IMG/VR virus record: IMGVR_UViG_3300037071_003200
Span: 64,001-100,931 of that record
Source: a virus
Lineage: Duplodnaviria > Heunggongvirae > Uroviricota > Caudoviricetes
Reading direction: 5' to 3' (one strand)
DNA length: 36,931 bases
Shown: positions 6,924 to 36,166 of the stretch, piece after piece
Position numbering within the stretch: the first letter of the stretch is position 1
Layout of the letters: each line of letters begins with the position of its first letter
Position numbers and translations under genes: made by a program
Notes under the pieces: model-generated
What the model was told of the DNA's origin: nothing
Seen by the model: the letters and a program-made list of their open reading frames with translations, nothing else
The model's database searches: none

Positions 6924-6941
6924 CTTCTCAGTCCTGAGAAG
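6924..6941. repeat. Palindrome family A copy (CTTCTCAGTCCTGAGAAG)
   Basis: Contains the rusA-like stop codon; ends 1 bp before the MTase ATG. Confidence 0.85.
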
Positions 6942-7284
6942 CTCTCAGCGTGATCCTCGTCACGTCCTCTTCATGGCCGCCGTAGCTGAGTGAGAGCGTC
7001 TTCACCTGGCGATCGTTCTCGATCATCCCGCCGATCTGCAGGCCGTCCAAGACGGCCTTGGCGTAGTTGTCGAGATCGCCTCGGAGCTTGCGCTTGGCGC
7101 AGAACTCGATCATCACCTGGCAGTCGGCATTGCCTATCACTGCGCTCGATGCACGGCACGCCCACGCGACTCTCTCCTCGTAGTCGCGCGTCCTCTTCGG
7201 CTTGAAGAAGCGGCCCTGATTCGTACGCACGCGCTCCCAGGCGACCGGGCGGCCGGGGACTTCCAGCTGAATGACTTCGCTCAT
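6928..7284 (-). CDS. rusA: RusA-like Holliday junction resolvase
   Basis: GDLDNYAKAVLDGL..GG.IENDRQV catalytic signature. Confidence 0.85.
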   Translation of the reverse strand: MSEVIQLEVPGRPVAWERVRTNQGRFFKPKRTRDYEERVAWACRASSAVIGNADCQVMIEFCAKRKLRGDLDNYAKAVLDGLQIGGMIENDRQVKTLSLSYGGHEEDVTRITLRASQD

Positions 7285-7487
7285 CTCTGCTCCAGAACAC
7301 GAACCCGTGCTTGAAGATCACGTACCTGCTCGTTGAGATCCTTCCAGCAGGCGTCCGTCTTGCGGACTCGCTCATGGCAGCCAACAGTCCGGTCGTGAAC
7401 GAGGAACAAGATCGTGAACGCTACGAGTCCAGACACGAGCAGGAAACAGAATCCACCGAATCCAAAGATCCAGTAGTTCCTCTTCAC
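7281..7487 (-). CDS. Small membrane protein with coiled-coil tail
   Basis: One hydrophobic segment; ATGA-coupled. Confidence 0.65.
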   Translation of the reverse strand: MKRNYWIFGFGGFCFLLVSGLVAFTILFLVHDRTVGCHERVRKTDACWKDLNEQVRDLQARVRVLEQR

Positions 7488-7497
7488 AACTCTTCCA

Positions 7498-7926
7498 TCA
7501 GATGGAGAAGCCCGGCACGTTCACCGGGTGCTCGACCTCGGAGATCATGTCCTCCAGCTCTGGGCGGCGTTTGACCAGAGACCGGCGGAGACGATCGAGG
7601 TGGATGCCCGTCGCCTGCAGATCAAACTGCTTGAGCTCTCGCAGCGCCTCGACGTAGTCGGTGACCACTTCCTGGGTGAAGTCGGACTCGGCCTGCCACT
7701 GCTCGCTTGCATCCTGCGCGAGCTCAAGACTCGAGTGCATGATCATCCGCGTCAACTGCAAGAGCACAACCCAGGTGAATCCGAGAACGGCCAGCAGGAT
7801 GAGCGAGTAGGTGGCGGAGTAGGCCAGGCCTGTGATGAGGAGGATGGCGTTCCCGAGACCGACCATCGCGATCACGAGCCATGCCTGGCGATCGAGGGTG
7901 CGCAGATCCGTCAGAAATATCCTCAC
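7498..7926 (-). CDS. Membrane protein with two TM segments
   Basis: Two hydrophobic helices followed by a charged helical domain. Confidence 0.65.
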   Translation of the reverse strand: MRIFLTDLRTLDRQAWLVIAMVGLGNAILLITGLAYSATYSLILLAVLGFTWVVLLQLTRMIMHSSLELAQDASEQWQAESDFTQEVVTDYVEALRELKQFDLQATGIHLDRLRRSLVKRRPELEDMISEVEHPVNVPGFSI

Positions 7927-8168
7927 TCCTCTTCCTCCGCCAGCTGCCGATCGAAGAGCATGGACATCTTGCTCATAGCCTGGGCCATCTCGGGGCCACT
8001 CTCGATGTTGTTGTTGAGGATGACCATCGGCCGGCAGACGAGCATGAATGCCTGCTGCTCCGAGAAGCCAGCGCCCTGGTACGCCGTGTACCAGGCGAAG
8101 TAATTCTCGGCGCCGGCGATGATCTCTTCATTCTCCTGCTGTTGGCTGGGGATAGGCAGCTCACTCAT
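7923..8168 (-). CDS. Hypothetical protein, 81 aa
   Basis: From MSELPI; GGAGG SD. Confidence 0.6.
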   Translation of the reverse strand: MSELPIPSQQQENEEIIAGAENYFAWYTAYQGAGFSEQQAFMLVCRPMVILNNNIESGPEMAQAMSKMSMLFDRQLAEEEE

Positions 8169-8523
8169 CGCCGACCTCCGAGAACATGAACACCTCACCC
8201 TTCTCGGTCGGCAGCGGCTTCAGCCCGCGCACCATGCCACCCTCGATGATCGCGATGCAGGTGCGGCCGGGGATCTTCTCCCACTGGTCGACACCGAACG
8301 CTCGCAGGCATCCGGTCACCCAACGGTGGACACCGCCCGGCGTGGTCTCGACGTGGCGCTCGGAGTCTCGATCGTTGTAGTCCAGACAGAGCGTTCCAGC
8401 TCCCTGCCCGGAGCCTCCGTAATCGAGATCGAGGATCCCGGTGAAGATGCCGTGGTCCTCGTAGCCGAGGAACGTGCTGCGGACCTTCGCGATCCGCTCG
8501 GTCTGTGTCTCTGTGACGGTCAT
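8161..8523 (-). CDS. Conserved phage hypothetical protein, 120 aa
   Basis: From MTVTETQ; LGYEDHGIFT..L.LDYGGSGQG.G...GVD.WE pattern; GGAGG SD. Confidence 0.72.
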   Translation of the reverse strand: MTVTETQTERIAKVRSTFLGYEDHGIFTGILDLDYGGSGQGAGTLCLDYNDRDSERHVETTPGGVHRWVTGCLRAFGVDQWEKIPGRTCIAIIEGGMVRGLKPLPTEKGEVFMFSEVGDE

Positions 8524-9536
8524 TCCTCCTCCTTCGGTTCGTTCAGGAGAATGCCGAGCTGCTCCTGGAGAATTTCCTGCATGAGCTGGGACGCCGTCTT
8601 CGATGCCCTCTCGGCGAGGATGAAGACCGGCACCCCGTAGTTGTCCTCGAGCTCTTCGCGCACAGCCTCCATCACCCTCGTCGAGCGGTTGTTCTTCGTG
8701 AAGGCCTTGCGCATGAAGAGGGCGGTCGGGTATGCGAACTCGGCCCGGTAGCCCGTGTCGCACACCAGGACCTCTCCCCACATCGCGATCTCCCCCCAGA
8801 GGAAGGAGTTGTCGCGTGTGAGCGACGTGTTGCCGGGATCGTCGTAGGCGTAGATGCCGCACGCGCACGAGGGCTCAGGTACGTCGTGGGACGCGAACGG
8901 GTTGCCGCCGCAGAGCCCCTGCATCTTTCTGCGATGCGGCCAGACTGCGCCGTTGCGCGATTGCAGCGAGTACCCCAACTGACCCTGGACCAGCTTGAAG
9001 TCGCGGTAGCCCACGATGGGCTCCACGCTCTTGCTGCTCTTCAACCCGTACGACGTCGCGCCGGGGAGGCTGGCCACCTTCTGCACCATCGACATGGATG
9101 ACATTGCCGACGAGGACATCGCCGCCGTCACCGCGGTAGTGATCTGTCGGGCCAGCGCTGACGTCGGAGGGACTACCGACGAGCGGGGCATCGTCGCGCC
9201 CGTGGCGCCCATCGTGCCCGCGGCCCCCGTCGCACCAGTAGGCCCTGGCGCGGGAAGCGTCGGCTGCCCCGTGTGCCAGAGCTCGACCATCAGCTCCGTG
9301 TGCGGATGCGTCGTCACGCGGCGTGCGTCCACCGAGCGCAGGATGATGCTCCCGTCCTGCAGGCCCTGGATCAGGTCCGCGATGAATTGATCGTGCGGAT
9401 TGCCGGGTGACGAACGAGGGACGGCGGTGACCGTCGGCCTCTTCGCCTTCAGCTCGGCGTCGGCCGCGGCCTTCTTCTTGAACAAGTCGGCCTTGGCCTG
9501 AGCCTTCGGGTCAGGCTTCCTCTTCTTGTCAGGCAT
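8520..9536 (-). CDS. Hypothetical protein with low-complexity linker and Cys/His-rich C-terminal domain
   Basis: PIVGYR...WP...C...H..P...CACGIYAY...WGEV...GYRAE..YP domain; Lys-rich N-terminus. Confidence 0.75.
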   Translation of the reverse strand: MPDKKRKPDPKAQAKADLFKKKAAADAELKAKRPTVTAVPRSSPGNPHDQFIADLIQGLQDGSIILRSVDARRVTTHPHTELMVELWHTGQPTLPAPGPTGATGAAGTMGATGATMPRSSVVPPTSALARQITTAVTAAMSSSAMSSMSMVQKVASLPGATSYGLKSSKSVEPIVGYRDFKLVQGQLGYSLQSRNGAVWPHRRKMQGLCGGNPFASHDVPEPSCACGIYAYDDPGNTSLTRDNSFLWGEIAMWGEVLVCDTGYRAEFAYPTALFMRKAFTKNNRSTRVMEAVREELEDNYGVPVFILAERASKTASQLMQEILQEQLGILLNEPKEEE

Positions 9537-9550
9537 GAGCTTCCACCACG

Positions 9551-9691
9551 TCACGCGGCGACCGGCTCCTCCACCGGTTGCTCCTGCGGAACCTCAACGG
9601 GCGTCGGTGCGGGGAGCGGCTCGCGCATCGGCACAGGCTCCACCTTCGGAGTGATCGTGATCTTCTCCTTGGGCTTTCCCACTTCGCTCAT
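9551..9691 (-). CDS. Small Pro/Glu-rich peptide, 46 aa
   Basis: MSEVGKPKEKITITPKVEPVPMREPLPAP...; AAAGGA SD; ATGA-coupled. Confidence 0.55.
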   Translation of the reverse strand: MSEVGKPKEKITITPKVEPVPMREPLPAPTPVEVPQEQPVEEPVAA

Positions 9692-10161
9692 CGGGTCATC
9701 CTTTCGGTCTCGAGGGGGCCTCTCTTCGGGCTCCCGCTTGCAGTCCATTCATCACGAAGGATCTCATACTCCTCCGTCGTCATCGCCGTCGTCGTGTCGA
9801 CGAAGTTGGCCTGCTGGGGGAGTGGGCGATCCTCCACAGGGTCCCGGTGAAAACGTATCCATGACCATACCCAAACCCACTCGGGAGTTTCGTATCCCCA
9901 CTTGCCCTCGGTGACGATCTCGGCCCGGCGCTCCTCATCACGCGCCTGCCGCTGCACCATCCGGTACGCCTCGTAGAAGGACGCCCACGGTGGGAAGTGC
10001 TCCCACGTCCTGATTCCGACGAGCACCGCGTTCGTCGCAGCGTGAGCGTCAAGGGTGGTGAGGCCGTCGATCCAGAAGCCGATCGTCTCGTCGTCCAGCG
10101 GGTACTGAGTTGTCGCTGCCTTCATCATCCCGAGCAGGTCTCGAGCTTCGTTCTCCTTCAT
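9688..10161 (-). CDS. Putative helicase loader/inhibitor (G39P-like)
   Basis: EA..LL.M.....YP.....W...L..L..A...W.HFPP pattern; lies downstream of an HTH initiator-like gene. Confidence 0.55.
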   Translation of the reverse strand: MKENEARDLLGMMKAATTQYPLDDETIGFWIDGLTTLDAHAATNAVLVGIRTWEHFPPWASFYEAYRMVQRQARDEERRAEIVTEGKWGYETPEWVWVWSWIRFHRDPVEDRPLPQQANFVDTTTAMTTEEYEILRDEWTASGSPKRGPLETERMTR

Positions 10162-10382
10162 GCCATCACCGAGTCCTCGGGCTGGTGCTCGTGGAGCGAG
10201 TGACCCATGTTCCCGGGCCCCGGATTCCCCACGCTCGCGAAGAGGCGGCCGGGGCCGAAGGGCATCAGCGTCCACGGAGCCTTCGCCTCGTCGTACGGCA
10301 CGTTCGGATAATCGAGCCGCACGGCGTTCTGGCACTCGACGACCTCGGCCCCGCACTCGGGGCATGGGGTTGCGTTGATCAT
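10158..10382 (-). CDS. Small Zn-binding hypothetical protein
   Basis: CPECG...; GGAG SD; coupled. Confidence 0.65.
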   Translation of the reverse strand: MINATPCPECGAEVVECQNAVRLDYPNVPYDEAKAPWTLMPFGPGRLFASVGNPGPGNMGHSLHEHQPEDSVMA

Positions 10383-11101
10383 TCGATCTCCTTCGGTTCG
10401 GCGCGACGACGCATCTCCTCGCGCATGGTCTGCCAGATGGGACTCTCGGCCTTGCTGATCCTGGCCGCCGTCACGGCGAGCACCTGCTGGTACTCAGCAC
10501 GACCGATGCGGCTACCCGCGCCGGCGACGACCATCTCCTGTGCGATCGTCTCGACGGAGCCGAACCACCCGGTCCGGATCGCCACGACCATCGCCGAGGT
10601 CACCACCTGTGGGTCGAAGCCAGCCTCGATCAGCGCCTTCGCGCCCTTCCCGATCCGCGCTTTGACCGACGGCGCCACCGGGAATCCCAGGTCGGTGCAC
10701 ACATCGACCGCGGCACCGACTGCGTCTCCGGCGTTGAAGGGCGTTCTCTCGCCGTTGGCCCGCTCCACGCCCTGTGTCTGGATGACTTCGGGGTGTTGTT
10801 CCATCAGCCTCCTCCTTCTACCTCGCCGCCCGGACGCGCTTGCGCGTCCAGAACTCGTAGCGAAGCGGAGAGTTCTGGGGGTTTCTGCTCTTGGGCTGCT
10901 TCCTTGTGTGACATTGAGGCGCCAGCGCACGGTCTTGCAGCGCGGCCGCCAGACGTGGTAGCCGTCGCGAACGATCGCGCCGGAGCCCTCGAGCTGGCAC
11001 TTCCAGCGCCGTATCGTCTGACGGCACACGCCGAGCTCCCTGGCGTGGTTGCCGTCGGAGCGCGTGGAGACTCCACCGCCGAGCCGTGCATCCTCTTCCA
11101 T
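10379..11101 (-). CDS. Putative replication initiator (N-terminal HTH, basic linker, helical C-terminal domain)
   Basis: HARELGVCRQTIRRWK.QLE.SG.I HTH. An internal start at 10804 (MEQHPE) with a strong SD may define a separate gene. True 5' start uncertain. Confidence 0.5.
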   Translation of the reverse strand: MEEDARLGGGVSTRSDGNHARELGVCRQTIRRWKCQLEGSGAIVRDGYHVWRPRCKTVRWRLNVTQGSSPRAETPRTLRFATSSGRASASGRRGRRRRLMEQHPEVIQTQGVERANGERTPFNAGDAVGAAVDVCTDLGFPVAPSVKARIGKGAKALIEAGFDPQVVTSAMVVAIRTGWFGSVETIAQEMVVAGAGSRIGRAEYQQVLAVTAARISKAESPIWQTMREEMRRRAEPKEIE

Positions 11102-11228
11102 GAGGAGCAGAAGCGCTTGGGGGCCTCGCCGATCCGATGTACTTGCTACGGTTTCACCTCCTGCCTAGGTTCTTCTCCAGCTTCCTAGTCAGGCTTCTGT
11201 TGGCTCTTGTGGAGAGAGCCAGCACAGT

Positions 11229-14755: not shown

Positions 14756-14773
14756 CTTCTCAATATTGAGAAG
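14756..14773. repeat. Palindrome family A copy (CTTCTCAATATTGAGAAG)
   Basis: Supplies the TGA stop of the C5 MTase (TSQY*). Confidence 0.9.
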
Positions 14774-17302: not shown

Positions 17303-17725
17303 TTATGGGGTGAATACCGCCTTGAGCAGCTCGGCGATCGCCAGCTGCGAGGCCGGTGTGGAATCGAACTTCTGGGCGATCCACTCCCAGTCCTCGTCGT
17401 CGGAGCAGAAGACGACTTCGTTCTTCTGGGCGTACGCGATCATGAAGACCTTGCGATCACGGACGCCGTAGTAGGACTGTTCGACGTCGTCGTACGCGCC
17501 ATCATTGCTGCGGTGTCCTCCGCCGGGAGCGCCGACGACATGCCACACCGGCGCGATCGTGATCGAGTACCAGGTGGCATCACCCGGCATGTAGCAGAGC
17601 TCCACCGCTCGCCCCAGCTCTCGCAGGCAGGACTGCGCCTGGTCGGCCAGCTCGGCGATGTGCTCTCTGTCCAGCCGCCCGAGAACGTACTCCCGGGAGG
17701 CCGGCTCGTGACTGAGCAGACTCAT
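17303..17725 (-). CDS. Hypothetical protein, 140 aa
   Basis: From MSLLSHE; coupled. Confidence 0.65.
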   Translation of the reverse strand: MSLLSHEPASREYVLGRLDREHIAELADQAQSCLRELGRAVELCYMPGDATWYSITIAPVWHVVGAPGGGHRSNDGAYDDVEQSYYGVRDRKVFMIAYAQKNEVVFCSDDEDWEWIAQKFDSTPASQLAIAELLKAVFTP

Positions 17726-18318
17726 AGATCTACTTCCTTTCTCCGCCGTTTTGCCACTCGGCGGCCTCGGATCGTGAGGCGGTGCGCCTCCTTGCAGGCC
17801 TGGCACCGACACTCGTAGTTGATGTAGCCCGAGTAGGTGCCGTGGTGCGGGGGTTCCTTTCCCTTGAGCTCCCTTCCTCTGTCGCGATTTGCCCGCCGAC
17901 ACTCGTCGCAGCGGCACTGGTACCTCCGGCTGCGGTAGCGGGCTACGGTTCCATGCGGAGGCTCCTCGTATCCGACGACGACTCTCAGGTCGAGCTCGTA
18001 CAGGGCCGACCGCAGGGAGCGGGCGTTCTTGTATCCGAGCTTCGAGGCCTCCTCGTTGAGGGTGGACTTCCCGGCGATGATCCTGCTGTACGCATCACGG
18101 AGAAGTTGGACACGTTCGATTGCCGCCTGGCGGCGGTACTGCTGGAGGCCGAGCGGCCCCAGGAGCTGGCCGACTCGCTGCCGAGTGAGGCCGAACTGCT
18201 CCCCGATTTGGGAGTAGCTCTGCCCCTGCTCCACATAGAGCCGGGCCATCTCCAGGGTTCGTTCGGGCACCCGCCGCTGGTAGTCCTCCAGCCAGGTTTC
18301 GGCGAGTGCGAGCGTCAT
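17722..18318 (-). CDS. HTH (sigma70 region-4-like) protein with two HGT..Y...CRC..C Zn motifs
   Basis: GQSYSQIGEQFGLTRQRVGQL; PHGTVARY...CRCDEC and HHGTYSGY...CRCQAC. Confidence 0.72.
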   Translation of the reverse strand: MTLALAETWLEDYQRRVPERTLEMARLYVEQGQSYSQIGEQFGLTRQRVGQLLGPLGLQQYRRQAAIERVQLLRDAYSRIIAGKSTLNEEASKLGYKNARSLRSALYELDLRVVVGYEEPPHGTVARYRSRRYQCRCDECRRANRDRGRELKGKEPPHHGTYSGYINYECRCQACKEAHRLTIRGRRVAKRRRKEVDL

Positions 18319-20624: not shown

Positions 20625-20654
20625 ATTCTACACGACGAGTATGTATATCGTCCA
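20625..20654 (-). promoter_or_regulatory. Sigma70-type promoter
   Basis: TGGACG-N18-TAGAAT followed by TGCCCAGTA and an SD. Confidence 0.6.
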
Positions 20655-21511: not shown

Positions 21512-21529
21512 CTTCTCAGGACTGAGAAG
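21512..21529. repeat. Palindrome family A copy (CTTCTCAGGACTGAGAAG)
   Basis: Immediately upstream of the SD of 20950..21498. Confidence 0.9.
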
Positions 21530-23738: not shown

Positions 23739-23768
23739 ACTCTACTTGCACGTCAAGGATTTGGTCAA
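23739..23768 (-). promoter_or_regulatory. Sigma70-type promoter
   Basis: TTGACC-N18-TAGAGT followed by TGCCCAGTA; palindrome A ends 3 bp upstream of the -35. Confidence 0.6.
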
Positions 23769-23771: not shown

Positions 23772-23789
23772 CTTCTCAGGACTGAGAAG
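23772..23789. repeat. Palindrome family A copy (CTTCTCAGGACTGAGAAG)
   Basis: Supplies the stop of 23776..23943; abuts the promoter -35. Confidence 0.9.
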
Positions 23790-23943
23790 CCCGCACCACC
23801 TCCTCTCTCGCTTTCGCCTCGACACCGCGCCGATAGCTGGTGAGGTACTCGGGGTTGGTGCTCCTCTTCGGACGGCCAGCACGGCCGTCGTTGTACCCCG
23901 CCTCACGCAGCCTGCTGCGCTCCTGCGCGGTCAGCTCGCTCAT
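23776..23943 (-). CDS. Small hypothetical protein, 55 aa (MSELTAQ...ASQS*)
   Basis: Not in the ORF track; GGAGG SD, ATGA-coupled; G.NDG..G...Y...Y..G pattern. Confidence 0.6.
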   Translation of the reverse strand: MSELTAQERSRLREAGYNDGRAGRPKRSTNPEYLTSYRRGVEAKAREEVVRASQS

Positions 23944-24809: not shown

Positions 24810-24827
24810 CTTCTCAATATTGAGAAG
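24810..24827. repeat. Palindrome family A copy (perfect)
   Basis: Intergenic; dyad extends to 22 bp. Confidence 0.9.
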
Positions 24828-26341: not shown

Positions 26342-26359
26342 CTTCTCAATATTGAGAAG
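26342..26359. repeat. Palindrome family A copy (perfect)
   Basis: Dyad extends to 24 bp; upstream of an SD. Confidence 0.9.
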
Positions 26360-26421
26360 ACGGGAGAGCTCTAGCCCTCCGGGAACCCGCTGGAGTTACC
26401 GCCAGCGGGAACCGCAGAGCG

Positions 26422-27282
26422 TTAGCTCTTGCTCGCAGCGGCGAGCTTCTTCTTGCCGTTGGCCACCTCCTTCAGCTCGGCGCTCTTCTGGGTCGCCTTC
26501 GCCGCGGCCACGCTCGCCTTGAGCGCGTCCATCAGATCGGCGGTTGGCTTGGCAGCCACCTCGGCGACCTTCTCGATCGGACGACCCTCGGCCGCTGCCT
26601 CGACAGCAGCTCGGAGCCTTGCGTCGTACTCGTCGGTGACCGACGACCAGTCGAAGTCGCCCGACAAGTTGCCGAACACCTCCGTCGCCATGTCGACGAG
26701 TGCCTGGTCGGGCGCCGGCCGCTCGCCGTGTCCCATCGTGATCAGCTTGTGATCGTCCCAGCGCAGGTTCGTGTCGTAGGTGCAGACGTGGGCCATGAGG
26801 CAGCCCTGCCCGTACCGCAGCACGATGACCTTCGTGGAGTCACGAAGCACAGCCTGGCCCACGAGGTAGCGGCCGCTGTCGGCGAGGACGGCGCAGATCA
26901 GGTCGTATCCGTCCTCGTTCCCCTTCTCCGGCCAGACGAGGTGCGTCTTCTCGAAGTAGAGAGGATCGACCTGGTCGGGTTCGATGAAGGACTTGAGCTC
27001 GAGTCGGCCGTCGCGCTCCGACTTGAGAGCCGCCTTGTCCTCACCGTCGAGAACGACGAAGCCGTCCTCGTACGGATAGCCGGTGACCTTCTCGACAACC
27101 TCGCCCGTGGCCTCGTCGATGTAGACCTGCTTGGCCGGGGTGAGATTTGCCGGGTTGAGGAACCGGCCACTCAGACGGCCACCCTGCGGGTCGACCATCG
27201 GAGCGTATTTGACGCCGACGTTCACGAGCCCGAAGCTGATGGTCAGCTTGTTCCCGCGCGAAGGCGTTGGGTAGGACGCCAT
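26422..27282 (-). CDS. ku: Ku protein (prokaryotic NHEJ DNA end-binding)
   Basis: ISFGLVNV.VK, GY.Y.DG.VV, F...QVDP.YFEK, A.E.V.DEY..RL...V.A, DLMDALKASV. Confidence 0.92.
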   Translation of the reverse strand: MASYPTPSRGNKLTISFGLVNVGVKYAPMVDPQGGRLSGRFLNPANLTPAKQVYIDEATGEVVEKVTGYPYEDGFVVLDGEDKAALKSERDGRLELKSFIEPDQVDPLYFEKTHLVWPEKGNEDGYDLICAVLADSGRYLVGQAVLRDSTKVIVLRYGQGCLMAHVCTYDTNLRWDDHKLITMGHGERPAPDQALVDMATEVFGNLSGDFDWSSVTDEYDARLRAAVEAAAEGRPIEKVAEVAAKPTADLMDALKASVAAAKATQKSAELKEVANGKKKLAAASKS

Positions 27283-27300
27283 AGGTGGCGCTCCCTTCCG

Positions 27301-27318
27301 CTTCTCAATATTGAGAAG
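27301..27318. repeat. Palindrome family A copy (perfect)
   Basis: 18 bp upstream of the Ku ATG. Confidence 0.9.
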
Positions 27319-27322
27319 CTGT

Positions 27323-28006
27323 CTAGGCGACTGCCTCCTCTTCCTCCACGCGCCCGAGGGCGAGGAAGTCGTCGTCGGTGGGTAGTGCGTTGAACGGATA
27401 GCTGGCGATTCGCTCGATCGCCTTGTACTCCGAGACCTCGGGTCGGTATGGCTCACGGCCCTGCTTCTTCGCGTACTCCAGGTGAGCCTTGAAGTTGACC
27501 TTGTCCTCGGCGGCCGTCGGACGGCCCTTCCACAGCCCCTGCTTCGGCCGCTTCTTCTGGAAGCCTGCGTAGACGTCGAACACCTTGTGATCGAAGTCCA
27601 CGATGTAGCCCCACTCGCAGAAGAGCGAGTCGAGCCCGAAGCTGAAGTTGTCGTAGATGTACCCGCACCGCAGCATCGCCTCGATGCTCCCGTGCGTGTC
27701 CTTCGTGAGGCAGTACCAGTCCTGCACGGACTGTTCGCTCACGGTCAGATCAGTCCACCCACGCAGAGCGTGAATGTCCTGGTCGGTGGGCTTGTCGTCG
27801 TCGGTGACGAGTCGACAGGCTGCGGCGAGCTGGCGAAACTTGGGCAAGCCAGTCCAGCGCTCGTCCACTCCCTCTCCCCACGGAACGATCCCGCGGAGCC
27901 AGGTCAGGTTCTCCAACCCCTTGCCGCTCGGGTACGAGTCGTACTGGTTGTACCCGACCTTCGCCTTCTCGCCGACGATGACGCCGAACGCTCCTCGCGT
28001 TCCCAT
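27323..28006 (-). CDS. Conserved phage hypothetical protein, 227 aa
   Basis: MGTRG...YNQYDSYPSG.G...DSLFCEWGYI.D.D pattern. Confidence 0.75.
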   Translation of the reverse strand: MGTRGAFGVIVGEKAKVGYNQYDSYPSGKGLENLTWLRGIVPWGEGVDERWTGLPKFRQLAAACRLVTDDDKPTDQDIHALRGWTDLTVSEQSVQDWYCLTKDTHGSIEAMLRCGYIYDNFSFGLDSLFCEWGYIVDFDHKVFDVYAGFQKKRPKQGLWKGRPTAAEDKVNFKAHLEYAKKQGREPYRPEVSEYKAIERIASYPFNALPTDDDFLALGRVEEEEAVA

Positions 28007-28044
28007 AACGCCTCCTTCGGTTGTGCTTCGTACTGGGCACGTCA

Positions 28045-28074
28045 AGTATCCACCCTGGTGTCAGGGTGCGTCAA
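28045..28074 (-). promoter_or_regulatory. Sigma70-type promoter with an inverted repeat as spacer
   Basis: TTGACG-N18-GATACT then TGCCCAGTA; the spacer is CACCCTG-N4-CAGGGTG. Confidence 0.5.
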
Positions 28075-28139
28075 GTCACCTCCTTTCCTCCAGCAAGCTG
28101 GCGGAGGGGCCGGGTATAAGGGCCCGGCCCTACCGGCAG

Positions 28140-28997
28140 CTAGCTGGTGAGAGCTAGCTGCTGCTCGGAGTCACCACGAGCAACTTGACCGAGGATGAGG
28201 TCGCTGGCCTTCTGGGCCATGCCTGCGGCGCTCACGACGAACTTCTTGTCGTTGCGTAGGGGCTCGAGCCAGTTGGCGATGTAGGCCGCCGACTGGTCGA
28301 GATTTTCAATGCCCACCATGCCGCAAAGCATGGCCGCACCCATCTCGGCCACAAGCTCTTCCTTCGCATACGGGCCCGTGCCGAAGCCGGTGCCCTCCAG
28401 GCGGTCGAGCCTTGACTCGTGCCCGGTCGAATGGACGAGCTCGTGGTACAGCGTGGAGTAGTACGCCTCGGCCGACTCGAACTGATCGAGCATCGGGACG
28501 CGCACCATGTCGGTCGTCGGAGAGTAGAACGCTCTGTCCCCTCCGAAGGTGACCGACGGGCCGATGTACCCGAGGGTGAGCTGCTCTGCCCTCTCGATCG
28601 GCGTGTTGTCGTACACGAGGTCTTCTGCCGGGGGCAGGCCGTCGGCCTGCTCGGCGTTGAAGACGTTGTAGTACTTGAAGAGGAAGTAGGAGCCGCGCTC
28701 CTCGTCCTCTGACGCACCGTCGGACCGGCGCTTGTTGACACGCCCGAGGAACACGATCTTGGTGTGCTCCTCCTTGCGCCGCACCTGCCCGCCTGCTCTC
28801 TTGATCGCGTTGTACGTCCCCCAGCGAGGATCGCCGTAAGGAGCAAGCGTCAGAAGGAACACGTTGATCCCCGAGTAGTGACGGCCGTTCTCGACATTGC
28901 GAGGGCCGCTGCCTACCCACGGCTTGCGCCAGGGAGCAGTTCCTTCCTCAAGAGAGGCGATGATCCGATCCGTCACCGACTGGTAGACGTCGATCAT
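28140..28997 (-). CDS. ardC: ArdC-like antirestriction / ssDNA-binding protein with zincin domain
   Basis: Y..VTD.II..LE.G..PW.KPW, YSGIN, FNAEQ.DG, HEL.HSTGH..RL.R, YA.EELVAE.GAA. Confidence 0.92.
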   Translation of the reverse strand: MIDVYQSVTDRIIASLEEGTAPWRKPWVGSGPRNVENGRHYSGINVFLLTLAPYGDPRWGTYNAIKRAGGQVRRKEEHTKIVFLGRVNKRRSDGASEDEERGSYFLFKYYNVFNAEQADGLPPAEDLVYDNTPIERAEQLTLGYIGPSVTFGGDRAFYSPTTDMVRVPMLDQFESAEAYYSTLYHELVHSTGHESRLDRLEGTGFGTGPYAKEELVAEMGAAMLCGMVGIENLDQSAAYIANWLEPLRNDKKFVVSAAGMAQKASDLILGQVARGDSEQQLALTS

Positions 28998-29016
28998 CGG
29001 GCCTCCTTTCTGGACG

Positions 29017-29034
29017 CTTCTCAATATTGAGAAG
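29017..29034. repeat. Palindrome family A copy (perfect)
   Basis: Upstream of the ArdC SD. Confidence 0.9.
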
Positions 29035-29096
29035 CGGAGACCACACAATCGTGGCTCCCGTCCCCGGCCGCAACGAACACGACCGGGATCGGCAGC

Positions 29097-29423
29097 TCAC
29101 TCTTGCTGCGATTTGGCGAGGCGGTACTCCACCGGGTCATTGAGGGTGGCGTCGTTGAGGTAGACGTAGACCTGCGGGTCACCCTCGTCGTTGTTCACGC
29201 CGTGCTCGGCGTCCTCCGTGTTGATGTTGACGAAGTAGTCGCCGTCGTCATCGGTGCCAACCATGACGTGCATCCCGTCGAAGTGAATGGACTCGTACTG
29301 CAGGGACGCGCGTCTTCGTGCATGGTGGCCCCCGAAGTCGGGAGACCACGGGCCGCCGCAGTTACGACAGCGACCCTCGATGTGCCCACGGTTGCTTCCG
29401 CAGGAACCACACGCGCCGCTCAT
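29097..29423 (-). CDS. Hypothetical protein with N-terminal Zn ribbon
   Basis: CGSC...CRNC; AAGGAG SD. Confidence 0.65.
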   Translation of the reverse strand: MSGACGSCGSNRGHIEGRCRNCGGPWSPDFGGHHARRRASLQYESIHFDGMHVMVGTDDDGDYFVNINTEDAEHGVNNDEGDPQVYVYLNDATLNDPVEYRLAKSQQE

Positions 29424-29437
29424 CGGCGCTCCTTTCT

Positions 29438-29698
29438 TCAGTCGGCGCTGATACGCCGATAGGTGTTGGCGAGGTCGACGAGAGGACGGATCAGGACGGC
29501 TCCACCCTCGAGCCGCTGAATCTCCTTCGCCTTCTCACCCACTTCGTCGCCTGTGAACGGCCCGTACACCAGGCAGCCGAAGATCGGGCTGCCGTTGACG
29601 TGAACGGACAGGCCTCCCAGGCAGACGACGACGTGATCGGGGACGATGCCGGCGACGATCGCCTCCTCGTCCTCGAGTTCGACCGTGATCGTCTTCAC
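29438..29698 (-). CDS. Hypothetical protein, 86 aa
   Basis: GTG start with AAGGAG SD. Confidence 0.6.
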   Translation of the reverse strand: MKTITVELEDEEAIVAGIVPDHVVVCLGGLSVHVNGSPIFGCLVYGPFTGDEVGEKAKEIQRLEGGAVLIRPLVDLANTYRRISAD

Positions 29699-29713
29699 GG
29701 ATGACTCCTTTCT

Positions 29714-29731
29714 CTTCTCAATATTGAGAAG
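29714..29731. repeat. Palindrome family A copy (perfect)
   Basis: Between a stop (29733) and an SD. Confidence 0.9.
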
Positions 29732-30273: not shown

Positions 30274-30291
30274 CTTCTCAGGACTGAGAAG
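30274..30291. repeat. Palindrome family A copy (CTTCTCAGGACTGAGAAG)
   Basis: Intergenic. Confidence 0.9.
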
Positions 30292-31272: not shown

Positions 31273-31290
31273 CTTCTCAATATTGAGAAG
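31273..31290. repeat. Palindrome family A copy (perfect)
   Basis: Abuts the stop at 31291. Confidence 0.9.
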
Positions 31291-31954: not shown

Positions 31955-31978
31955 GGGTGACTCCTTTCCGGAGGTCCT

Positions 31979-31988: not shown

Positions 31989-32035
31989 AGGCCTCCGGCC
32001 CAAACCGGGATCGCACCCCGGAAGGGGCCGCAGGG

Positions 32036-32266: not shown

Positions 32267-32269
32267 GAA

Positions 32270-32617
32270 CTACACCCTGCCGACGACGACTGTGATGACC
32301 GAATCGGGCACCTTCTCCTTCGCGATCATCGCTGCACCGATCGCGTCGATCGCCTCCTCCTCGGCGTCGAACGGCCGGGTGATGCTGACGCCGTCCCGGC
32401 AGACCATGAGCCCGAACTTAGGCTCAGGCTTCTCAATATTGAGAAGCCGCATGGCGTCGTCGATCTGGTCGATCGCGTACTCCTTGAGGCCGTGGGGATT
32501 GTTGACGAGATCACCATCGGACTCGTCCTCGGGTAACCCGGACGGATCGTCCAGGGCGGTACGCGCACGACTGAGCGCATCCAGCGCCTTGTCGATGCGT
32601 CCCTCGTCCGCGGTCAC
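32270..32617 (-). CDS. Hypothetical protein, 115 aa, reading through a palindrome A copy
   Basis: GTGA-coupled start; ...AMRLLNIEKPEPK... Confidence 0.6.
   Translation of the reverse strand: MTADEGRIDKALDALSRARTALDDPSGLPEDESDGDLVNNPHGLKEYAIDQIDDAMRLLNIEKPEPKFGLMVCRDGVSITRPFDAEEEAIDAIGAAMIAKEKVPDSVITVVVGRV
32429..32446. repeat. Palindrome family A copy (perfect), intragenic
   Basis: Encodes LLNIEK in frame. Confidence 0.9.
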
Positions 32618-32865
32618 GGCGTCACCGGGACGGGCACGAAGTCGAAGTAGTGGCGCGGCGAGTGCGTGAAGGTCAACGTGCCCTTCATGCCGTCGGAGCG
32701 CCGCCGGACGACGACGTAGGGGGCGGCGAAGCCGATCGCCTCGAAGTCCTCCTGCATCCCGGACGTGTCCCACACAGGACCGTCGTAGGACGCAGGGATA
32801 CCGCCCTCGTTGATGAGCTGAGTGAGCAGCCTTCGCTGCGCCTCGCTCTCGGGAGACTCAGGCAT
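32614..32865 (-). CDS. Conserved phage hypothetical protein, 83 aa
   Basis: WDT.....DFE.IGFAAPYVVVRR.SDG.KG.L.F.HSPR.YF. Confidence 0.75.
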   Translation of the reverse strand: MPESPESEAQRRLLTQLINEGGIPASYDGPVWDTSGMQEDFEAIGFAAPYVVVRRRSDGMKGTLTFTHSPRHYFDFVPVPVTP

Positions 32866-32890
32866 GAGTCCTCCTCTCTATGCCTCGGCC

Positions 32891-32900
32891 AGATTTGACC
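32891..32900 (+). repeat. Motif family B copy (AGATTTGACC)
   Basis: Intergenic. Confidence 0.6.
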
Positions 32901-32958
32901 GGGGGAAGCCTCGGAAGGCTCCAGTCTCCCCCGCCCGAAGGTAGGGGGAGCGGCAGCC

Positions 32959-33159
32959 CTACGGGCGCCGAAGCAGCAGCTTTACCGACTCCTCATCGAG
33001 GAGGCCGAGCCTCTCTGCTTCGGCTCGAACACGTGCGTCTTTCGCCTGGGCAACCCATAGCTCGAGGTTGTCCAGGCACCGCTGGATTTCCTCCACCGTG
33101 GTGCCGCGGCGTTGAGGCCGTGGCTCGGGGTCGGGTTCCAGCACGTCGCAGCCGATCAC
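32959..33159 (-). CDS. Hypothetical protein, 66 aa
   Basis: GTGA-coupled. Confidence 0.5.
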   Translation of the reverse strand: MIGCDVLEPDPEPRPQRRGTTVEEIQRCLDNLELWVAQAKDARVRAEAERLGLLDEESVKLLLRRP

Positions 33160-33374
33160 CGAGCGAGATGCTCGATGAAGAGGGCAAGCGACATGAGCAT
33201 GGCCATGCCGAGGATCAGGCCGACCGCGACGAGCGGCCGGATTTGACCATTGCCGTCCTCGAACGTGTCCTCGGCCTGGTAGTGACGAAACTTGCGGTCA
33301 CCGTCGGCAGCGAGGGCTGCCCGTCTGTGCGCGTCGATCGCGCCCTTGAGGTACTGACGTTGTTCCGAAGTCAT
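33156..33374 (-). CDS. Small protein with C-terminal TM helix, 72 aa
   Basis: From MTSEQR; AAGGAGG SD. Confidence 0.65.
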   Translation of the reverse strand: MTSEQRQYLKGAIDAHRRAALAADGDRKFRHYQAEDTFEDGNGQIRPLVAVGLILGMAMLMSLALFIEHLAR

Positions 33375-33423
33375 CGGAAGCACCTCCTTTCCGGTGCGGT
33401 AGCACCGGGCACGGGGAGGGCCG

Positions 33424-33433
33424 GAACTTGACC
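33424..33433 (+). repeat. Motif family B copy (GAACTTGACC)
   Basis: Intergenic. Confidence 0.7.
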
Positions 33434-33454
33434 GGCCGACTCCCCGACCCGGAC

Positions 33455-33646
33455 CTACGGCACGCTCACACAGTGGTCGTAGAACACCTCGCCACCAGCT
33501 CCCTCGGTCCGGTTGCAATCGAGCGTCTCACCGTGCTTGGTGAAGATCACTCGCTGCTGGGCCTCGTGATCGAGAGCTCGACCGACGAGGACGGAGCCGA
33601 AGAAGAGAGCGAGGGCCACGATCACGCCTGTAAGGAGCAGGCGCAT
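33455..33646 (-). CDS. Small membrane-anchored/secreted protein, 63 aa
   Basis: N-terminal hydrophobic helix, two Cys; GGAGG SD. Confidence 0.7.
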   Translation of the reverse strand: MRLLLTGVIVALALFFGSVLVGRALDHEAQQRVIFTKHGETLDCNRTEGAGGEVFYDHCVSVP

Positions 33647-33655
33647 GTGTCCTCC

Positions 33656-33673
33656 CTTCTCAAGATTGAGAAG
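33656..33673. repeat. Palindrome family A copy (CTTCTCAAGATTGAGAAG)
   Basis: Abuts an SD. Confidence 0.9.
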
Positions 33674-33718
33674 CTGCCCGCCCGAACCGCAGGCCGGGCG
33701 GGCAGCAGGGGCCGGACG

Positions 33719-33946
33719 CTACTCGGAGCGACCGTTGTGTGCGACGAACGCGCGGCGCCGCTGGCGGCCCTTCCGCACGATGAAGTCGGGGCTGGACGCC
33801 TCGACTCCCTCGTCGACTTTGACCGGGATCGGCTTCGGAGCCGACACTCGGTGATCCATCTTTGCAGCGCGGACGCCCTCGCGAGCGTTCACGCGGGCCC
33901 GCAAGCGGACCCAGCCCTCTTCGGACTTGTGCAGGTTCCCACTCAC
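33719..33946 (-). CDS. Basic hypothetical protein, 75 aa
   Basis: GTG with AAGGAG SD. Confidence 0.55.
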   Translation of the reverse strand: MSGNLHKSEEGWVRLRARVNAREGVRAAKMDHRVSAPKPIPVKVDEGVEASSPDFIVRKGRQRRRAFVAHNGRSE

Positions 33947-33968
33947 CGGGAACTCCTTTCGTGACTCG

Positions 33969-33986
33969 CTTCTCAACATTGAGAAG
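33969..33986. repeat. Palindrome family A copy (CTTCTCAACATTGAGAAG)
   Basis: Intergenic. Confidence 0.9.
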
Positions 33987-34131
33987 CTGGGGTGGATGAC
34001 GACACCTCGTCGCCTCCGGCCCCCCGTCCAGAACTTGCCCGGACGAGGGGCCGCACGCGGCCAGGGTTAGGTTGTGGCCCTTGCTAGGGCTAGCGGGTCA
34101 TGCGCTCCTCCTTTCGGGTCACGCACCCGCC

Positions 34132-34141
34132 GGATTTGACC
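34132..34141 (+). repeat. Motif family B copy (GGATTTGACC)
   Basis: Intergenic. Confidence 0.6.
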
Positions 34142-34161
34142 GGCGGGAACGTCGCCCGAAC

Positions 34162-34470
34162 CTAGTCCTCGTCCTCGTGCCCGTACCCGAGGAACGAGTG
34201 CTCCGCCTCTTGCGAGGTGTCGTGGACTTCGTAGGTACAGAAGCCCTGCGGGTCCTCCCACATGACGAAGCGACCGATCAGGCCGATCCACATCCCCTGG
34301 TCGACCGAGCCGATTTGATCGTCGCACTCGCCGTCGAGACTGAGGGCGTAGAGCGCCCTCGCAATGCGCAGATCAGCGTTCCCCTCGAACTTGCCCGGGC
34401 CAGGCACGACGGCATGGTCGGGGTCGTCGAGGAGGGCGAGTATCTGCCCGTAGTCAAGCTCGATGAGCAT
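34162..34470 (-). CDS. Acidic hypothetical protein, 102 aa
   Basis: PGKFEG motif; GGAGG SD. Confidence 0.7.
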   Translation of the reverse strand: MLIELDYGQILALLDDPDHAVVPGPGKFEGNADLRIARALYALSLDGECDDQIGSVDQGMWIGLIGRFVMWEDPQGFCTYEVHDTSQEAEHSFLGYGHEDED

Positions 34471-34487
34471 TGACCCTCCTATGTCGG

Positions 34488-34505
34488 CTTCTCAATATTG
34501 AGAAG
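34488..34505. repeat. Palindrome family A copy (perfect)
   Basis: Supplies the stop of 34492..34740 (ASQY*). Confidence 0.9.
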
Positions 34506-34740
34506 CGGCGTCGTCGTCCGCGTACAGCGGAACGACGTCTTGCACCGAAGCGCCTGCGATGAACGCCTCGTAGGCGCGAGTCGCCTCTTCGCGATCGCGG
34601 TAGAACCCATTGCGCTCACGTCCCTCGTCGAGGTCGGTGAACTTGAGGCGGATCGAGAGCGGATCTTGACCCTCGAACCATCGGACGCGCCGACGCCACT
34701 CAGGCCGGCGGTCCTGCCACGACTTCGTATAGACGCGCAT
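34492..34740 (-). CDS. Hypothetical protein, 82 aa
   Basis: AAGGAGG SD. Confidence 0.65.
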   Translation of the reverse strand: MRVYTKSWQDRRPEWRRRVRWFEGQDPLSIRLKFTDLDEGRERNGFYRDREEATRAYEAFIAGASVQDVVPLYADDDAASQY

Positions 34741-34784
34741 GGCGTCCTCCTTCCGAGGCTACGTTTGCCTCTCGCCCGAGGCCG

Positions 34785-34794
34785 GAACTTGACC
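34785..34794 (+). repeat. Motif family B copy (GAACTTGACC)
   Basis: Intergenic. Confidence 0.7.
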
Positions 34795-34820
34795 GTCCCG
34801 GCGACGGGCGGCAGGCAGAC

Positions 34821-34982
34821 CTAGCGCCTACGTTTGCGGCGAGGGCGATCCGCCTTGAGCCCGTCCACGACTTCCCGCTTCGTCAGCGGGAAGAGGGGGA
34901 GCTGCTCGATCGGCCAGTAGCGCCCCGACTTGATTTGGGCGATACGGGCCTCGGCGATCGCCTCGCGGGCGTCGCGAGCCAC
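34821..34982 (-). CDS. Small basic hypothetical protein, 53 aa
   Basis: Not in the ORF track; GTG right after the upstream TGA. Confidence 0.45.
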   Translation of the reverse strand: MARDAREAIAEARIAQIKSGRYWPIEQLPLFPLTKREVVDGLKADRPRRKRRR

Positions 34983-34983
34983 G

Positions 34984-35226
34984 TCAGACTTTGACCGAAT
35001 ACTGCTCGGCGTGGTCGAGCAGGGGGAGCACGACCGGGTCTTCCAGCGGTCGCATGATGCGGAGAACGAGAGCGTGGTCGCAGCCAGCTTCGATCAGCGG
35101 CTCGACGTCACCAGGGCTTGTGCCCCAACGAACGAGAATGTCCACCTGCTCAGGAGTGAACTCCATCCGCAGGAACCTCCTCGCTCGCCACCCGTCCACG
35201 CGCTCGGCTTCGGAAGCCTTGCTCAT
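34984..35226 (-). CDS. Hypothetical protein, 80 aa
   Basis: From MSKASE; WR...F.......L..GC...L.LRI pattern; GGAG SD. Confidence 0.65.
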   Translation of the reverse strand: MSKASEAERVDGWRARRFLRMEFTPEQVDILVRWGTSPGDVEPLIEAGCDHALVLRIMRPLEDPVVLPLLDHAEQYSVKV

Positions 35227-35257
35227 GGGGGAGATTCTCCTCTCGGAGTCGGCCGGG

Positions 35258-35275
35258 CTTCTCAAGATTGAGAAG
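35258..35275. repeat. Palindrome family A copy (CTTCTCAAGATTGAGAAG)
   Basis: Intergenic; dyad extends to 22 bp. Confidence 0.9.
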
Positions 35276-35288
35276 CCGCGGAGTTTGA

Positions 35289-35456
35289 CTAGAGCTTTTG
35301 GAGCTGGGATGCGGCGTAGACCCACGTTCGGCCATAGCGCCACGTCACGAAGACGCGGCCAGCCTCAATGTGGGACACGACGCCCTCATCCTGGCGCGGG
35401 TCGGTCGCGAGGTAGACGCGATCGCCCACGGCCAGGGACTCAAGCGTGGCCGTCAT
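35289..35456 (-). CDS. Small SH3-like protein, 55 aa (MTATLESLAVGDRVYL...)
   Basis: Not in the ORF track; GGAGG SD; VGDRV...G.V...V.W pattern. Confidence 0.65.
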   Translation of the reverse strand: MTATLESLAVGDRVYLATDPRQDEGVVSHIEAGRVFVTWRYGRTWVYAASQLQKL

Positions 35457-35474
35457 TCGGACCTCCTCGGGTGG

Positions 35475-35678
35475 CTAGAACCAGTCGCCGATGATTTGCC
35501 CGGTCAGGTCGAAGCGGGCATAGGTAGTCAGGCCGTCCTCGACGACTTGGAGCAGCATGGTGCCGTCCTCGTCCATCGAGGCGGTCAGCGTCGCGTCCGA
35601 CGTGCGGAACGCCTGGATCGCGAGGCGGAAAGTCTCGCGCTGACGTGACGTCGGCGAGACTTTGACCTTCGTTGCCAT
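35475..35678 (-). CDS. Hypothetical protein, 67 aa
   Basis: AAGGAGGT SD. Confidence 0.65.
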   Translation of the reverse strand: MATKVKVSPTSRQRETFRLAIQAFRTSDATLTASMDEDGTMLLQVVEDGLTTYARFDLTGQIIGDWF

Positions 35679-35725
35679 AGGGATCACCTCCCTTCCTTGT
35701 TAGAAGCTCGCGGCGGCCGGGCCTG

Positions 35726-35735
35726 GATTTTGACC
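35726..35735 (+). repeat. Motif family B copy (GATTTTGACC)
   Basis: Intergenic. Confidence 0.7.
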
Positions 35736-35755
35736 AGACCCGCCACCGCCAGCGC

Positions 35756-35854
35756 CTACGCCGTGATCAGGTACACGACGGCGAGAATCGCCGGTGACAC
35801 GACGGCCACCATCGCGAGCGTCCGTCCGAGCAGGTCGTATGGGAACGAGATCAT
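35756..35854 (-). CDS. Hydrophobic micro-protein, 32 aa (MISFPYDLLGRTLAMVAVVSPAILAVVYLITA)
   Basis: GGAGG SD; single TM helix; bracketed by motifs A and B. Confidence 0.55.
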   Translation of the reverse strand: MISFPYDLLGRTLAMVAVVSPAILAVVYLITA

Positions 35855-35881
35855 GGGGAACCTCCTCTCCGAGGGGTCGGG

Positions 35882-35899
35882 CTTCTCAATATTGAGAAG
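35882..35899. repeat. Palindrome family A copy (perfect)
   Basis: Intergenic. Confidence 0.9.
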
Positions 35900-35902
35900 C
35901 GG

Positions 35903-36130
35903 CTAGCGGTCGAAGCGGGCGCAGAAGCCGAGCGGCCACTGGCGCTGCGCGAGGACGCGCAGCTCGGCGAGCCGCTGGAGCTTGGACGGCATGACGCCGT
36001 CCGGGCCTGCGATGAATGTCGCGCGTGAGGTCCGGCGGTAGATCATCCAGGCCTCACCCGCGACGACGGTCGAGCCCTTCCGCCGAAGCTGGCGGTAGAG
36101 GTCGCGCGTCACGTCGTCCAGGTCTTTCAC
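35903..36130 (-). CDS. Basic hypothetical protein, 75 aa
   Basis: GTG with GGAG SD; exactly bracketed by two palindromes. Confidence 0.65.
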   Translation of the reverse strand: MKDLDDVTRDLYRQLRRKGSTVVAGEAWMIYRRTSRATFIAGPDGVMPSKLQRLAELRVLAQRQWPLGFCARFDR

Positions 36131-36148
36131 GGGACTCCGTTCGGTCGG

Positions 36149-36166
36149 CTTCTCAATATTGAGAAG
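36149..36166. repeat. Palindrome family A copy (perfect)
   Basis: Intergenic. Confidence 0.9.

Follow-up and report, generated by a model that had tools for sequence, protein, structure and literature searches.

A short palindrome with invariant arms at early-gene junctions in a lineage of uncultivated soil phages, a possible operator for a dimeric regulator

The 18-bp palindrome CTTCTCA-N4-TGAGAAG occurs 18 times in the window analysed here, a 36,931-nucleotide stretch that represents bases 64001–100931 of a 100,931-bp tailed-phage record (~64% GC). The element is real, strongly selected and lineage-wide, a cis-element conserved among uncultivated soil phages of one lineage with genomes of roughly 100 kb. 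We favour, at a probability of about 0.5, the reading that the palindrome acts as duplex DNA, as an operator for a phage-encoded dimeric DNA-binding regulator of early genes. It joins a class of repeats that has been described but not explained, with Cluster O and Cluster EG phages already known as members. New are the invariance of the arms over deep divergence, the concerted turnover of the centre, the variants in sister lineages and a testable candidate protein.

The palindrome occupies early-gene junctions

None of 100 dinucleotide-preserving shuffles led us to expect a single copy in the window, against the 18 found. A preliminary description of this DNA had given coordinates and sequences for these copies, including 11 perfect ones and arms that never vary, and all of this proved correct. 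It had also proposed a motif scan of the whole genome and of relatives, which raised the count to 21 (the three copies outside the window lie at genome positions 1378, 16717 and 25232) and recovered the same arms in four relatives. Variants with one mismatch are absent from the genome, and only one with two mismatches is present. With its outer flank pair, (G)CTTCTCA-N4-TGAGAAG(C), the dyad measures 20 bp. All 21 copies agree at the 14 arm positions; complementarity of the outer pair is seen in 15/21 (permutation p = 0.0008) and in ~60–70% of copies across all genomes compared, and nothing is conserved beyond these 18–20 bp. Among the 18 window copies, 11 are CTTCTCAATATTGAGAAG, while the others have the centres GGAC/GTCC (4), AAGATT (2) and AACATT (1). 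Centres in this phage are mostly palindromic, and the asymmetric ones are of mixed orientation.

Placement was assessed against genes called with our own codon-bias caller, whose calls are heuristic. The left arm of the genome, with the terminase, a glycosylation locus and the structural genes, lies on the plus strand; the right arm is on the minus strand throughout, with transcription running from the right end inward. The right arm holds 18 of the 21 genome copies, and 14 of the 18 window copies fall in its last 12 kb, in agreement with the reported rise in density toward the right end. Gene junctions had been named as the location of all but one copy; indeed, 17 of 18 are intergenic or overlap the upstream stop codon only, the intragenic exception being that at 32429. 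Of the 40 right-arm gaps that measure at least 18 nt, 17 contain a copy. Viewed on the minus strand, a copy follows the upstream stop and mostly stands 2–15 nt ahead of the next Shine–Dalgarno (SD) sequence (GGAGG), with a median of ~8 nt between motif end and SD and a variable distance overall (−1 to 62 nt). The description of copies as lying upstream of the next SD holds in this orientation, because the right-arm genes are on the minus strand. The TGA within the motif serves as the upstream gene's stop codon in five cases in the window and six in the genome.

Genes flanked by copies include, according to Pfam, ArdC (28143–28997), Ku (26425–27282), DUF6915, DUF7178 and three DUF6878 genes, which corroborates the earlier placement of Ku, ArdC and DUF6878 genes between copies. 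Most early genes matched no Pfam family.

Arms are fixed and centres turn over in concert

Megablast of the window against cultured phages returned short methylase matches only, and terminase tBLASTn found no cultured relative above ~33% identity. The exact 18-mer gave only single chance matches in IMG/VR, JGI metagenomes and GTDB genomes, mostly in low-GC organisms, and was multi-copy in no other record of these collections. A Ku-based search of IMG/VR for related loci found none, and a 169-aa gene used as query retrieved low-GC non-relatives only. A Ku protein search, however, led to a large uncultivated lineage with Ku 50–87% identical and several contigs of ~100 kb, one of which (101 kb, Ku 83% identical) stands outside the five-genome comparison described below.

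That comparison comprises this phage and four syntenic partial loci: L125 (Ku 60% identical; 20.8 kb of a 104.8-kb contig), with 18 copies; L126 (Ku 87%; 4.8 kb, DNA 82–85% identical to this phage), with 4; L127 (Ku 69%; 17.7 kb; L128 is a second contig with the same Ku protein), with 14; and L129 (Ku 60%; 20.8 kb), with 18. In all four the arms are unchanged and copies again stand shortly before SDs, for a total of 72 copies across the five genomes. Copies are kept at at least 13 orthologous junctions, where ungapped flank identity is ~39%; these include the junctions upstream of Ku, ArdC, DUF6878 and gene families 6, 7, 9, 13, 21, 25, 34 and 35.

The centre, in contrast to the arms, is genome-specific: ATAT in this phage, G-NN-C in L126, L127 and L129, and N-CG-N in L125 (16/18). 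Positions 8 and 11 had been thought to covary as base pairs, which is true of this phage (21/21) but not of L125 (1/18). At four orthologous copies shared with L126 (window 26342–29731), the arms agree at 14/14 positions and the centre at 1/4, reading ATAT here and GGAC/GTCC in L126, amid surroundings that are 82–95% identical; the centre therefore changes in concert. At the copy at 29017, upstream of ArdC, the flanks are 95% identical over 80 nt, again with a centre identity of 1/4. The centre of this ArdC-upstream copy is also flipped between L126 and L127 (GGAC versus GTCC). Judged from these alignments, the mismatch with L126 and the flip suggest conversion or inversion between copies.

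Two more distant relatives carry variants of the dyad. L130 has GATTCTCAG-N3-CTGAGAATC, with 4 copies in 17.9 kb (L130:1122–14040); it departs from the main motif by one arm base and by 1 bp of extra distance between the half-sites. G001 (IMGVR_UViG_3300005836_000011), a complete 83.5-kb phage with structural genes 40–93% identical to those of this phage, carries GTCTAGG-AA-CCTAGAC, or (GT)CTAGG-AA-CCTAG(AC). Of its 24 copies, 22 are intergenic, and most directly precede early-arm SDs (for example, 63334–79348), with the central AA co-oriented with transcription in 17 cases versus 4. In the terminase relatives G002 and G003 (44–54 kb), no comparable palindrome was found, only a strong SD word.

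Rather doubtfully, the copies could be regarded as an evolving specificity system, in which the arms stay fixed and the 4-nt centre is replaced genome-wide in concert. Replacement might proceed by short-tract gene conversion between copies, or the centre might co-evolve with its reader protein. If reader co-evolution were true, close lytic phages would possess private regulatory codes that insulate them from co-infecting relatives, a lytic-phage counterpart of heteroimmunity. In any case, the lineage is unusually good comparative material, offering many diverged genomes with the same arms, sisters with variant motifs, a fast centre and a private helix-turn-helix (HTH) protein.

A proposed operator for a dimeric regulator and a candidate binder

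From the copy number, placement, arm invariance and symmetry observed, we infer that a two-fold symmetric phage protein probably binds the dyad copies as operators. Copies fill most true intergenic gaps of the promoter-proximal early operon, which carries anti-defence genes such as ArdC and Ku, and further copies abut an internal promoter and sit in the divergent control region at the opposite end of the genome. As the protein accumulated and bound its sites, host RNA polymerase would be repressed or blocked throughout the early region. The outcome would be a temporal shut-off, akin to stoperators or the plasmid KorA/ArdK networks, in an apparently lytic phage. The operator or roadblock network put forward in the preliminary description thus fits the new evidence and is its best explanation, with binding itself predicted from sequence.

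Several lines of evidence favour a dimeric regulator over an RNA hairpin. The arms show no compensatory changes across genomes with proteins 60% identical, pointing to sequence-specific recognition rather than mere pairing. Symmetry also reaches positions unable to pair in a hairpin, namely A-TA-T, the central CG, G-xx-C and the 2-nt centre of G001, which has a counterpart in Cluster EG. An isolated half-site ahead of the terminal early promoter also speaks for duplex recognition. Finally, some copies lie outside the transcript of the adjacent promoter: one is 1–3 nt upstream of a −35 element (TTGACC) whose promoter is kept in four genomes, and the divergent control region holds copies at genome position 1378 in this phage and at 2690 and 2770 in L129, upstream of a conserved TTGACG-17-TAGAGT promoter. 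The Cluster O repeat was likewise interpreted by its authors as the site of a dimeric protein (PMC4351075).

The candidate binder is a lineage-restricted protein of 198 aa (17722–18318, minus strand), with an N-terminal HTH resembling sigma-r4, KorA and ArdK and two Cys-rich motifs. It matches sigma-r4/HTH_28, has an invariant helix, TRQRVGQLL, and contains two repeats of the form HGT-x3-Y-x5-8-CxC-x2-C-x2-AN. These HGT...CxCxxC repeats look like paired small zinc-binding modules, and PHROGs families of the HNH endonuclease, integrase and WhiB-like kinds match them in part of their length. Searched against the PDB, a three-homologue profile gave ArdK/KorA as best matches, weakly (E = 0.004). 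The AlphaFold model (predicted local distance difference test score, pLDDT, 87) showed in Foldseek only HTH-domain likeness (DeoR, ArdK, KorA, sigma-4), with no match at E ≤ 0.001. All 55 homologues are on lineage contigs, and the family is absent from G001–G003, which lack the main motif. The homologue in L130, the relative with the variant motif, reads TRQRVHFLL, with two substitutions in the recognition helix. Together, these features are suggestive of the 17722–18318 protein as the palindrome binder, and only suggestive because much of the right arm shares its phyletic pattern.

Should the palindrome prove to be a global early-gene switch, it would account for the timing of the anti-defence genes ArdC and Ku in large lytic actinophages, and the operator with its regulator would form a compact, orthogonal pair.

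Alternative explanations

The palindrome may instead work in polycistronic early mRNA, a possibility we take seriously while holding it to be unlikely. Shortly before each SD, the motif would fold into a tetraloop hairpin with a stem of 7–8 bp, to be read by a sequence-specific RNA-binding protein or endoribonuclease that represses translation or processes or stabilises single cistrons. T4 RegA, a translational repressor, offers a parallel. Several observations suit this proposal, and some of them weigh against a duplex operator. Nearly all copies, in all five genomes, lie inside transcribed junctions between a stop and an SD a few nucleotides on. The predicted RNA hairpin has an energy of −6.9 kcal/mol when the 18-mer is folded alone and of −8.0 to −10.3 kcal/mol once a flanking base is added on each side, and the complementary outer flank pair would extend its stem. 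Positions 8 and 11 of the L125 centre are free, as in a loop; the 1-bp shift in half-site spacing in L130, where the centre differs in length by one, would be accommodated more readily by a loop than by a rigid dimer; and the asymmetric centre of G001 is biased with transcription, an orientation that a symmetric dimer does not need. In addition, GC-rich hairpins precede several copies and could shield a 3′ end upstream. To these are added doubts specific to the regulator: the binder is a guess, given that many right-arm genes show the same phyletic pattern, and the co-variation of helix and motif comes from one genome, L130. The Cluster O authors, moreover, considered a role in transcription improbable, given the distance of most sites from promoters (PMC4351075). 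Against an RNA element stand the unchanged arms in genomes with Ku at 60% identity, the symmetry held at unpairable positions, the copies upstream of promoters or in divergent non-transcribed spacers, and searches in which the element matched no Rfam family and no RNA-binding protein or RNase candidate was identified. If nothing binds the palindrome, this alternative would point to a new kind of translational or processing signal.

Quite improbable, in our view, is a promoter or start-site element, with the palindrome read by a phage-redirected host RNA polymerase, or as an extruded hairpin, and transcription starting before each early SD. The early promoters of phage N4 are a precedent for extruded hairpins, and this proposal would accommodate the short motif–SD distance, the several copies that directly follow terminator-like hairpins with no sigma70-like promoter between, and a sequence conservation as high as is typical of phage-specific promoters. 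However, a palindrome would fire both ways, the SD begins 0–1 nt after the motif in some copies, one copy is intragenic and conserved, and ordinary sigma70-like promoters with a conserved leader are already present in the arm. Pfam scans of 80 predicted proteins revealed no phage RNA polymerase or complete sigma factor, and the largest proteins are a fibre and, from size and position, a probable tape-measure protein.

The least probable of the explanations weighed is that the copies are recombination sites, either integron-like (attC-like) or homologous as in T4, whose primary role is to shuffle single-gene cassettes. The preliminary description had raised this as its second model. Ku is flanked by copies in 5/5 genomes and has changed position in L129, family 2 forms a single-gene unit with a copy on either side that is absent from L127, and intervals that differ between genomes hold a copy more often than others (55% versus 30%, confounded by interval length). 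The concerted evolution of centres, with 1/4 identity to L126 at four sites, indicates that copies may exchange sequence, and Cluster O phages have some indels between their repeats (PMC4351075). Yet no associated recombinase was found: a six-frame search of the whole genome detected no tyrosine or serine recombinase (Phage_integrase, PF00589; Resolvase), ParB (PF02195), Y1 transposase (PF01797), HTH_3, HTH_17 or Peptidase_S24. Integron-like, partition, REP/RAYT (repetitive extragenic palindrome and its associated tyrosine transposase) and classical immunity systems are therefore not supported, and the phage looks lytic. In gene-family strings of the five genomes, adjacency was lost at 43% of motif junctions, compared with 26% of other gaps of at least 18 nt and 38% of tight junctions (p = 0.06 and 0.19, pseudo-replicated). 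Synteny breaks thus show no clear enrichment at motif junctions, which leaves the integron-like cassette model unsupported. In the clearest rearrangement, the exchanged Ku/ArdC order of L129, the hairpin upstream, the motif and the leader are unmoved and the break lies near the SD/ATG rather than in the motif; L127 has deletions without both edges in motif copies. Retention of copies at orthologous junctions over long divergence is conservation of a regulatory type. Recombination may occur at copies now and then, as reported for Cluster O, but the pattern of conservation does not reflect it. Read joints at 23790 and 21530 were considered as signs of excision or deletion and rejected: their short sides equal the motif (21 letters where listed), and the joints stem from relatives' contigs with a GGAC/GTCC centre at another junction.

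Individual copies, promoters and genome ends

The leftmost copy in the window (6924–6941; centre GTCC on the plus and GGAC on the minus strand) overlaps the stop of a RusA-like gene, and 1 nt separates it from the ATG of the N6/N4 methylase gene that follows. That at 14756–14773 (ATAT) also overlaps the upstream gene's stop, with a terminator-like hairpin ~45 nt further on. Two DUF6878 gene starts are preceded by copies, 13 nt away at 21512–21529 (GGAC on the plus strand) and 41 nt away at 24810–24827 (ATAT). Between these, the copy at 23772–23789 (GGAC on the plus strand) precedes a sigma70-like promoter at 23768–23739, its distance to the −35 (TTGACC) being 3 nt, an arrangement kept in L125, L127 and L129. 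Three ATAT copies surround Ku and ArdC: 26342–26359, between Ku and a DUF6878 gene, with orthologous copies in L125, L126 and L127; 27301–27318, 18 nt before the Ku start; and 29017–29034, 19 nt before the ArdC start, the latter two with orthologous copies in 5/5 genomes.

Further to the right, two ATAT copies occupy 34-nt junctions, at 29714–29731 and, straight after a TAG stop, at 31273–31290. A GC-rich hairpin precedes the copy at 30274–30291 (GGAC on the plus strand). The sole intragenic copy in the window (32429–32446) reads LLNIEK; L127 retains it at the same codons and has a second copy in that gene. At 33656–33673 (AAGATT on the plus strand) a GC-rich hairpin comes directly before the copy and GGAGG directly after. 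The remaining copies are 33969–33986 (AACATT on the plus strand), 34488–34505 (ATAT, overlapping the upstream stop codon), 35258–35275 (AAGATT on the plus strand), 35882–35899 (ATAT) and 36149–36166 (ATAT), the last at the first junction of the early operon. The terminal early promoter (TTTACG-17-TATACT, 36507–36479) is preceded by an isolated half-site, CTTCTCA, on the minus strand at 36518–36524, with 10 nt from there to the −35.

A small hairpin with a stem of GGAG...CTCC (cccGGAGnnn...nnnCTCC) recurs between the upstream stop and many copies, for example at window 29035–29060 and 26360–26395 and at L129 5994–6035. It keeps its locus when the downstream open reading frame is exchanged, as in the Ku/ArdC swap of L129.

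Three sigma70-like promoters with 18-nt spacers were seen on the minus strand, at 20654–20625, 23768–23739 and 28074–28045. They share a conserved downstream leader, TGCCCAGTA(C/A)G, and the promoter at 23768 is conserved in L125, L127 and L129. A second, oriented word, motif B (GGTCAA[AG][AT]T[CG]), occurs 15 times between 28190 and 36831 on the minus strand. Eight of these form an array (36546–36831) in the terminal non-coding 400 bp, upstream of the promoter at 36507–36479, while the rest are in palindrome-free junctions, frequently within a GC-rich hairpin loop. The layout recurs in L129, with four CCAAGTTCT copies ~30 nt apart upstream of TTGACG-18-TATTAT (L129 4566–4595). In relatives, motif B often lies 26–47 nt upstream of a palindrome. 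We rejected motif B as a −35 element, as the start codon is too near and its spacing to the palindrome varies.

The region L129:2300–4700 spans the end of this phage's record, with a homologue of the 301-aa left-end gene followed by the motif B array and then the early promoter. Because the L129 contig continues through that point, the 'linear' ends of the record are unlikely to be simple and unique; terminal redundancy or circular permutation of the genome may explain this, or else a cut made there in assembly.

Comparison with known systems

Several familiar palindromes differ from this element. The attC sites of integrons are imperfect palindromes of 57–141 bp with R and L boxes and extrahelical bases, located at the 3′ end of each cassette, with an IntI-type tyrosine recombinase next to the array, whereas the present element is a perfect 18–20-bp dyad, in a genome from which PF00589 is absent. 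REP/RAYT elements are mobile palindromes whose hairpin is recognised by a Y1 (HUH) transposase; here PF01797 is absent, as is the ParB_N domain (PF02195) of a ParB–parS system. The PeSL (promoter early stem-loop) cassettes of T4 combine an early promoter with a stem-loop and flank novel open reading frames. In this phage, by contrast, most copies have no sigma70-like promoter in the junction, and promoters are separate elements.

Closer parallels come from repeats tied to gene starts or to regulators. In Cluster K phages, the start-associated sequence (SAS) is an asymmetric 13-mer, 3–8 nt from the start, in which the SD is included at a fixed distance; it marks translation starts in the non-structural arm, and the extended form (ESAS) is an imperfect 17-bp inverted-repeat pair with a 4–13-bp spacer whose half-site consensus varies by subcluster (PMC3203893). 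Our motif is similarly confined to the non-structural arm and tied to translation starts, but it is symmetric and separate from the SD, at a variable distance. KorA and ArdK, of plasmids RK2 and R388, are small HTH dimers that act on a repeated operator before many 'establishment' genes, including ardC (PMC3937220, PMC9723621). The HTH of the 198-aa candidate resembles theirs, weakly and over the HTH only; those, however, are plasmid systems with operators in promoters, and the phage protein has an extra Cys-rich C-terminal half. The stoperators of Cluster A/CA phages number dozens of near-identical sites in short intergenic regions or gene termini, at which bound protein blocks elongation; they are asymmetric, 13–14 bp long, co-oriented with transcription and recognised by the monomeric immunity repressor of temperate phages (PMC9283540, PMC6550527, PMC13313380). 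Many short, near-identical sites between genes or overlapping gene termini are a shared trait, but the present site is a dyad, and searches of the genome revealed neither an integrase nor a CI/LexA-type repressor.

The analogues named in the preliminary description were apt, Cluster O being the closest of them. Cluster O mycobacteriophages (Corndog and others) carry 34 copies of the 17-bp TGTTCGG-N3-CCGAACA, with invariant arms, which are densest in the right-end leftward operon and absent from the host genome; these phages have Ku, a virion glycosylation locus and no lysogeny genes, and are apparently lytic (PMC4351075). The invariant 7-bp arms, the right-end leftward operon, Ku with a glycosylation locus and the apparently lytic character all recur in our phage, whereas the Cluster O centre is 3 nt, the sequence differs and no relatedness is detectable at the DNA level.

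Especially close are the Cluster EG Microbacterium phages (Hyperion, Squash and OneinaGillian). Their 18-bp GATCAACC-NN-GGTTGATC is present in 8–10 copies in short intergenic regions, 14–22 bp upstream of right-end leftward gene starts, and is conserved though the surrounding DNA differs, in phages without repressor or integrase (PMC7302621). Both systems consist of an 18-bp dyad with a very short centre at right-end leftward genes, conserved despite diverged surroundings; the sequence is different, however, this lineage has 18–21 copies against 8–10, and the EG phages are unrelated, ~60 kb in size and have a cultured host. Neither concerted turnover of the centre nor variant motifs have been reported for the EG repeat. 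In its arms and copy number, its placement in short intergenic gaps at the right end, its conservation and the absence of integrase and repressor, our phage agrees throughout with the Cluster O and EG type. Invariant short dyads at early-gene junctions are thereby recorded in at least three unrelated phage groups of high-GC hosts.

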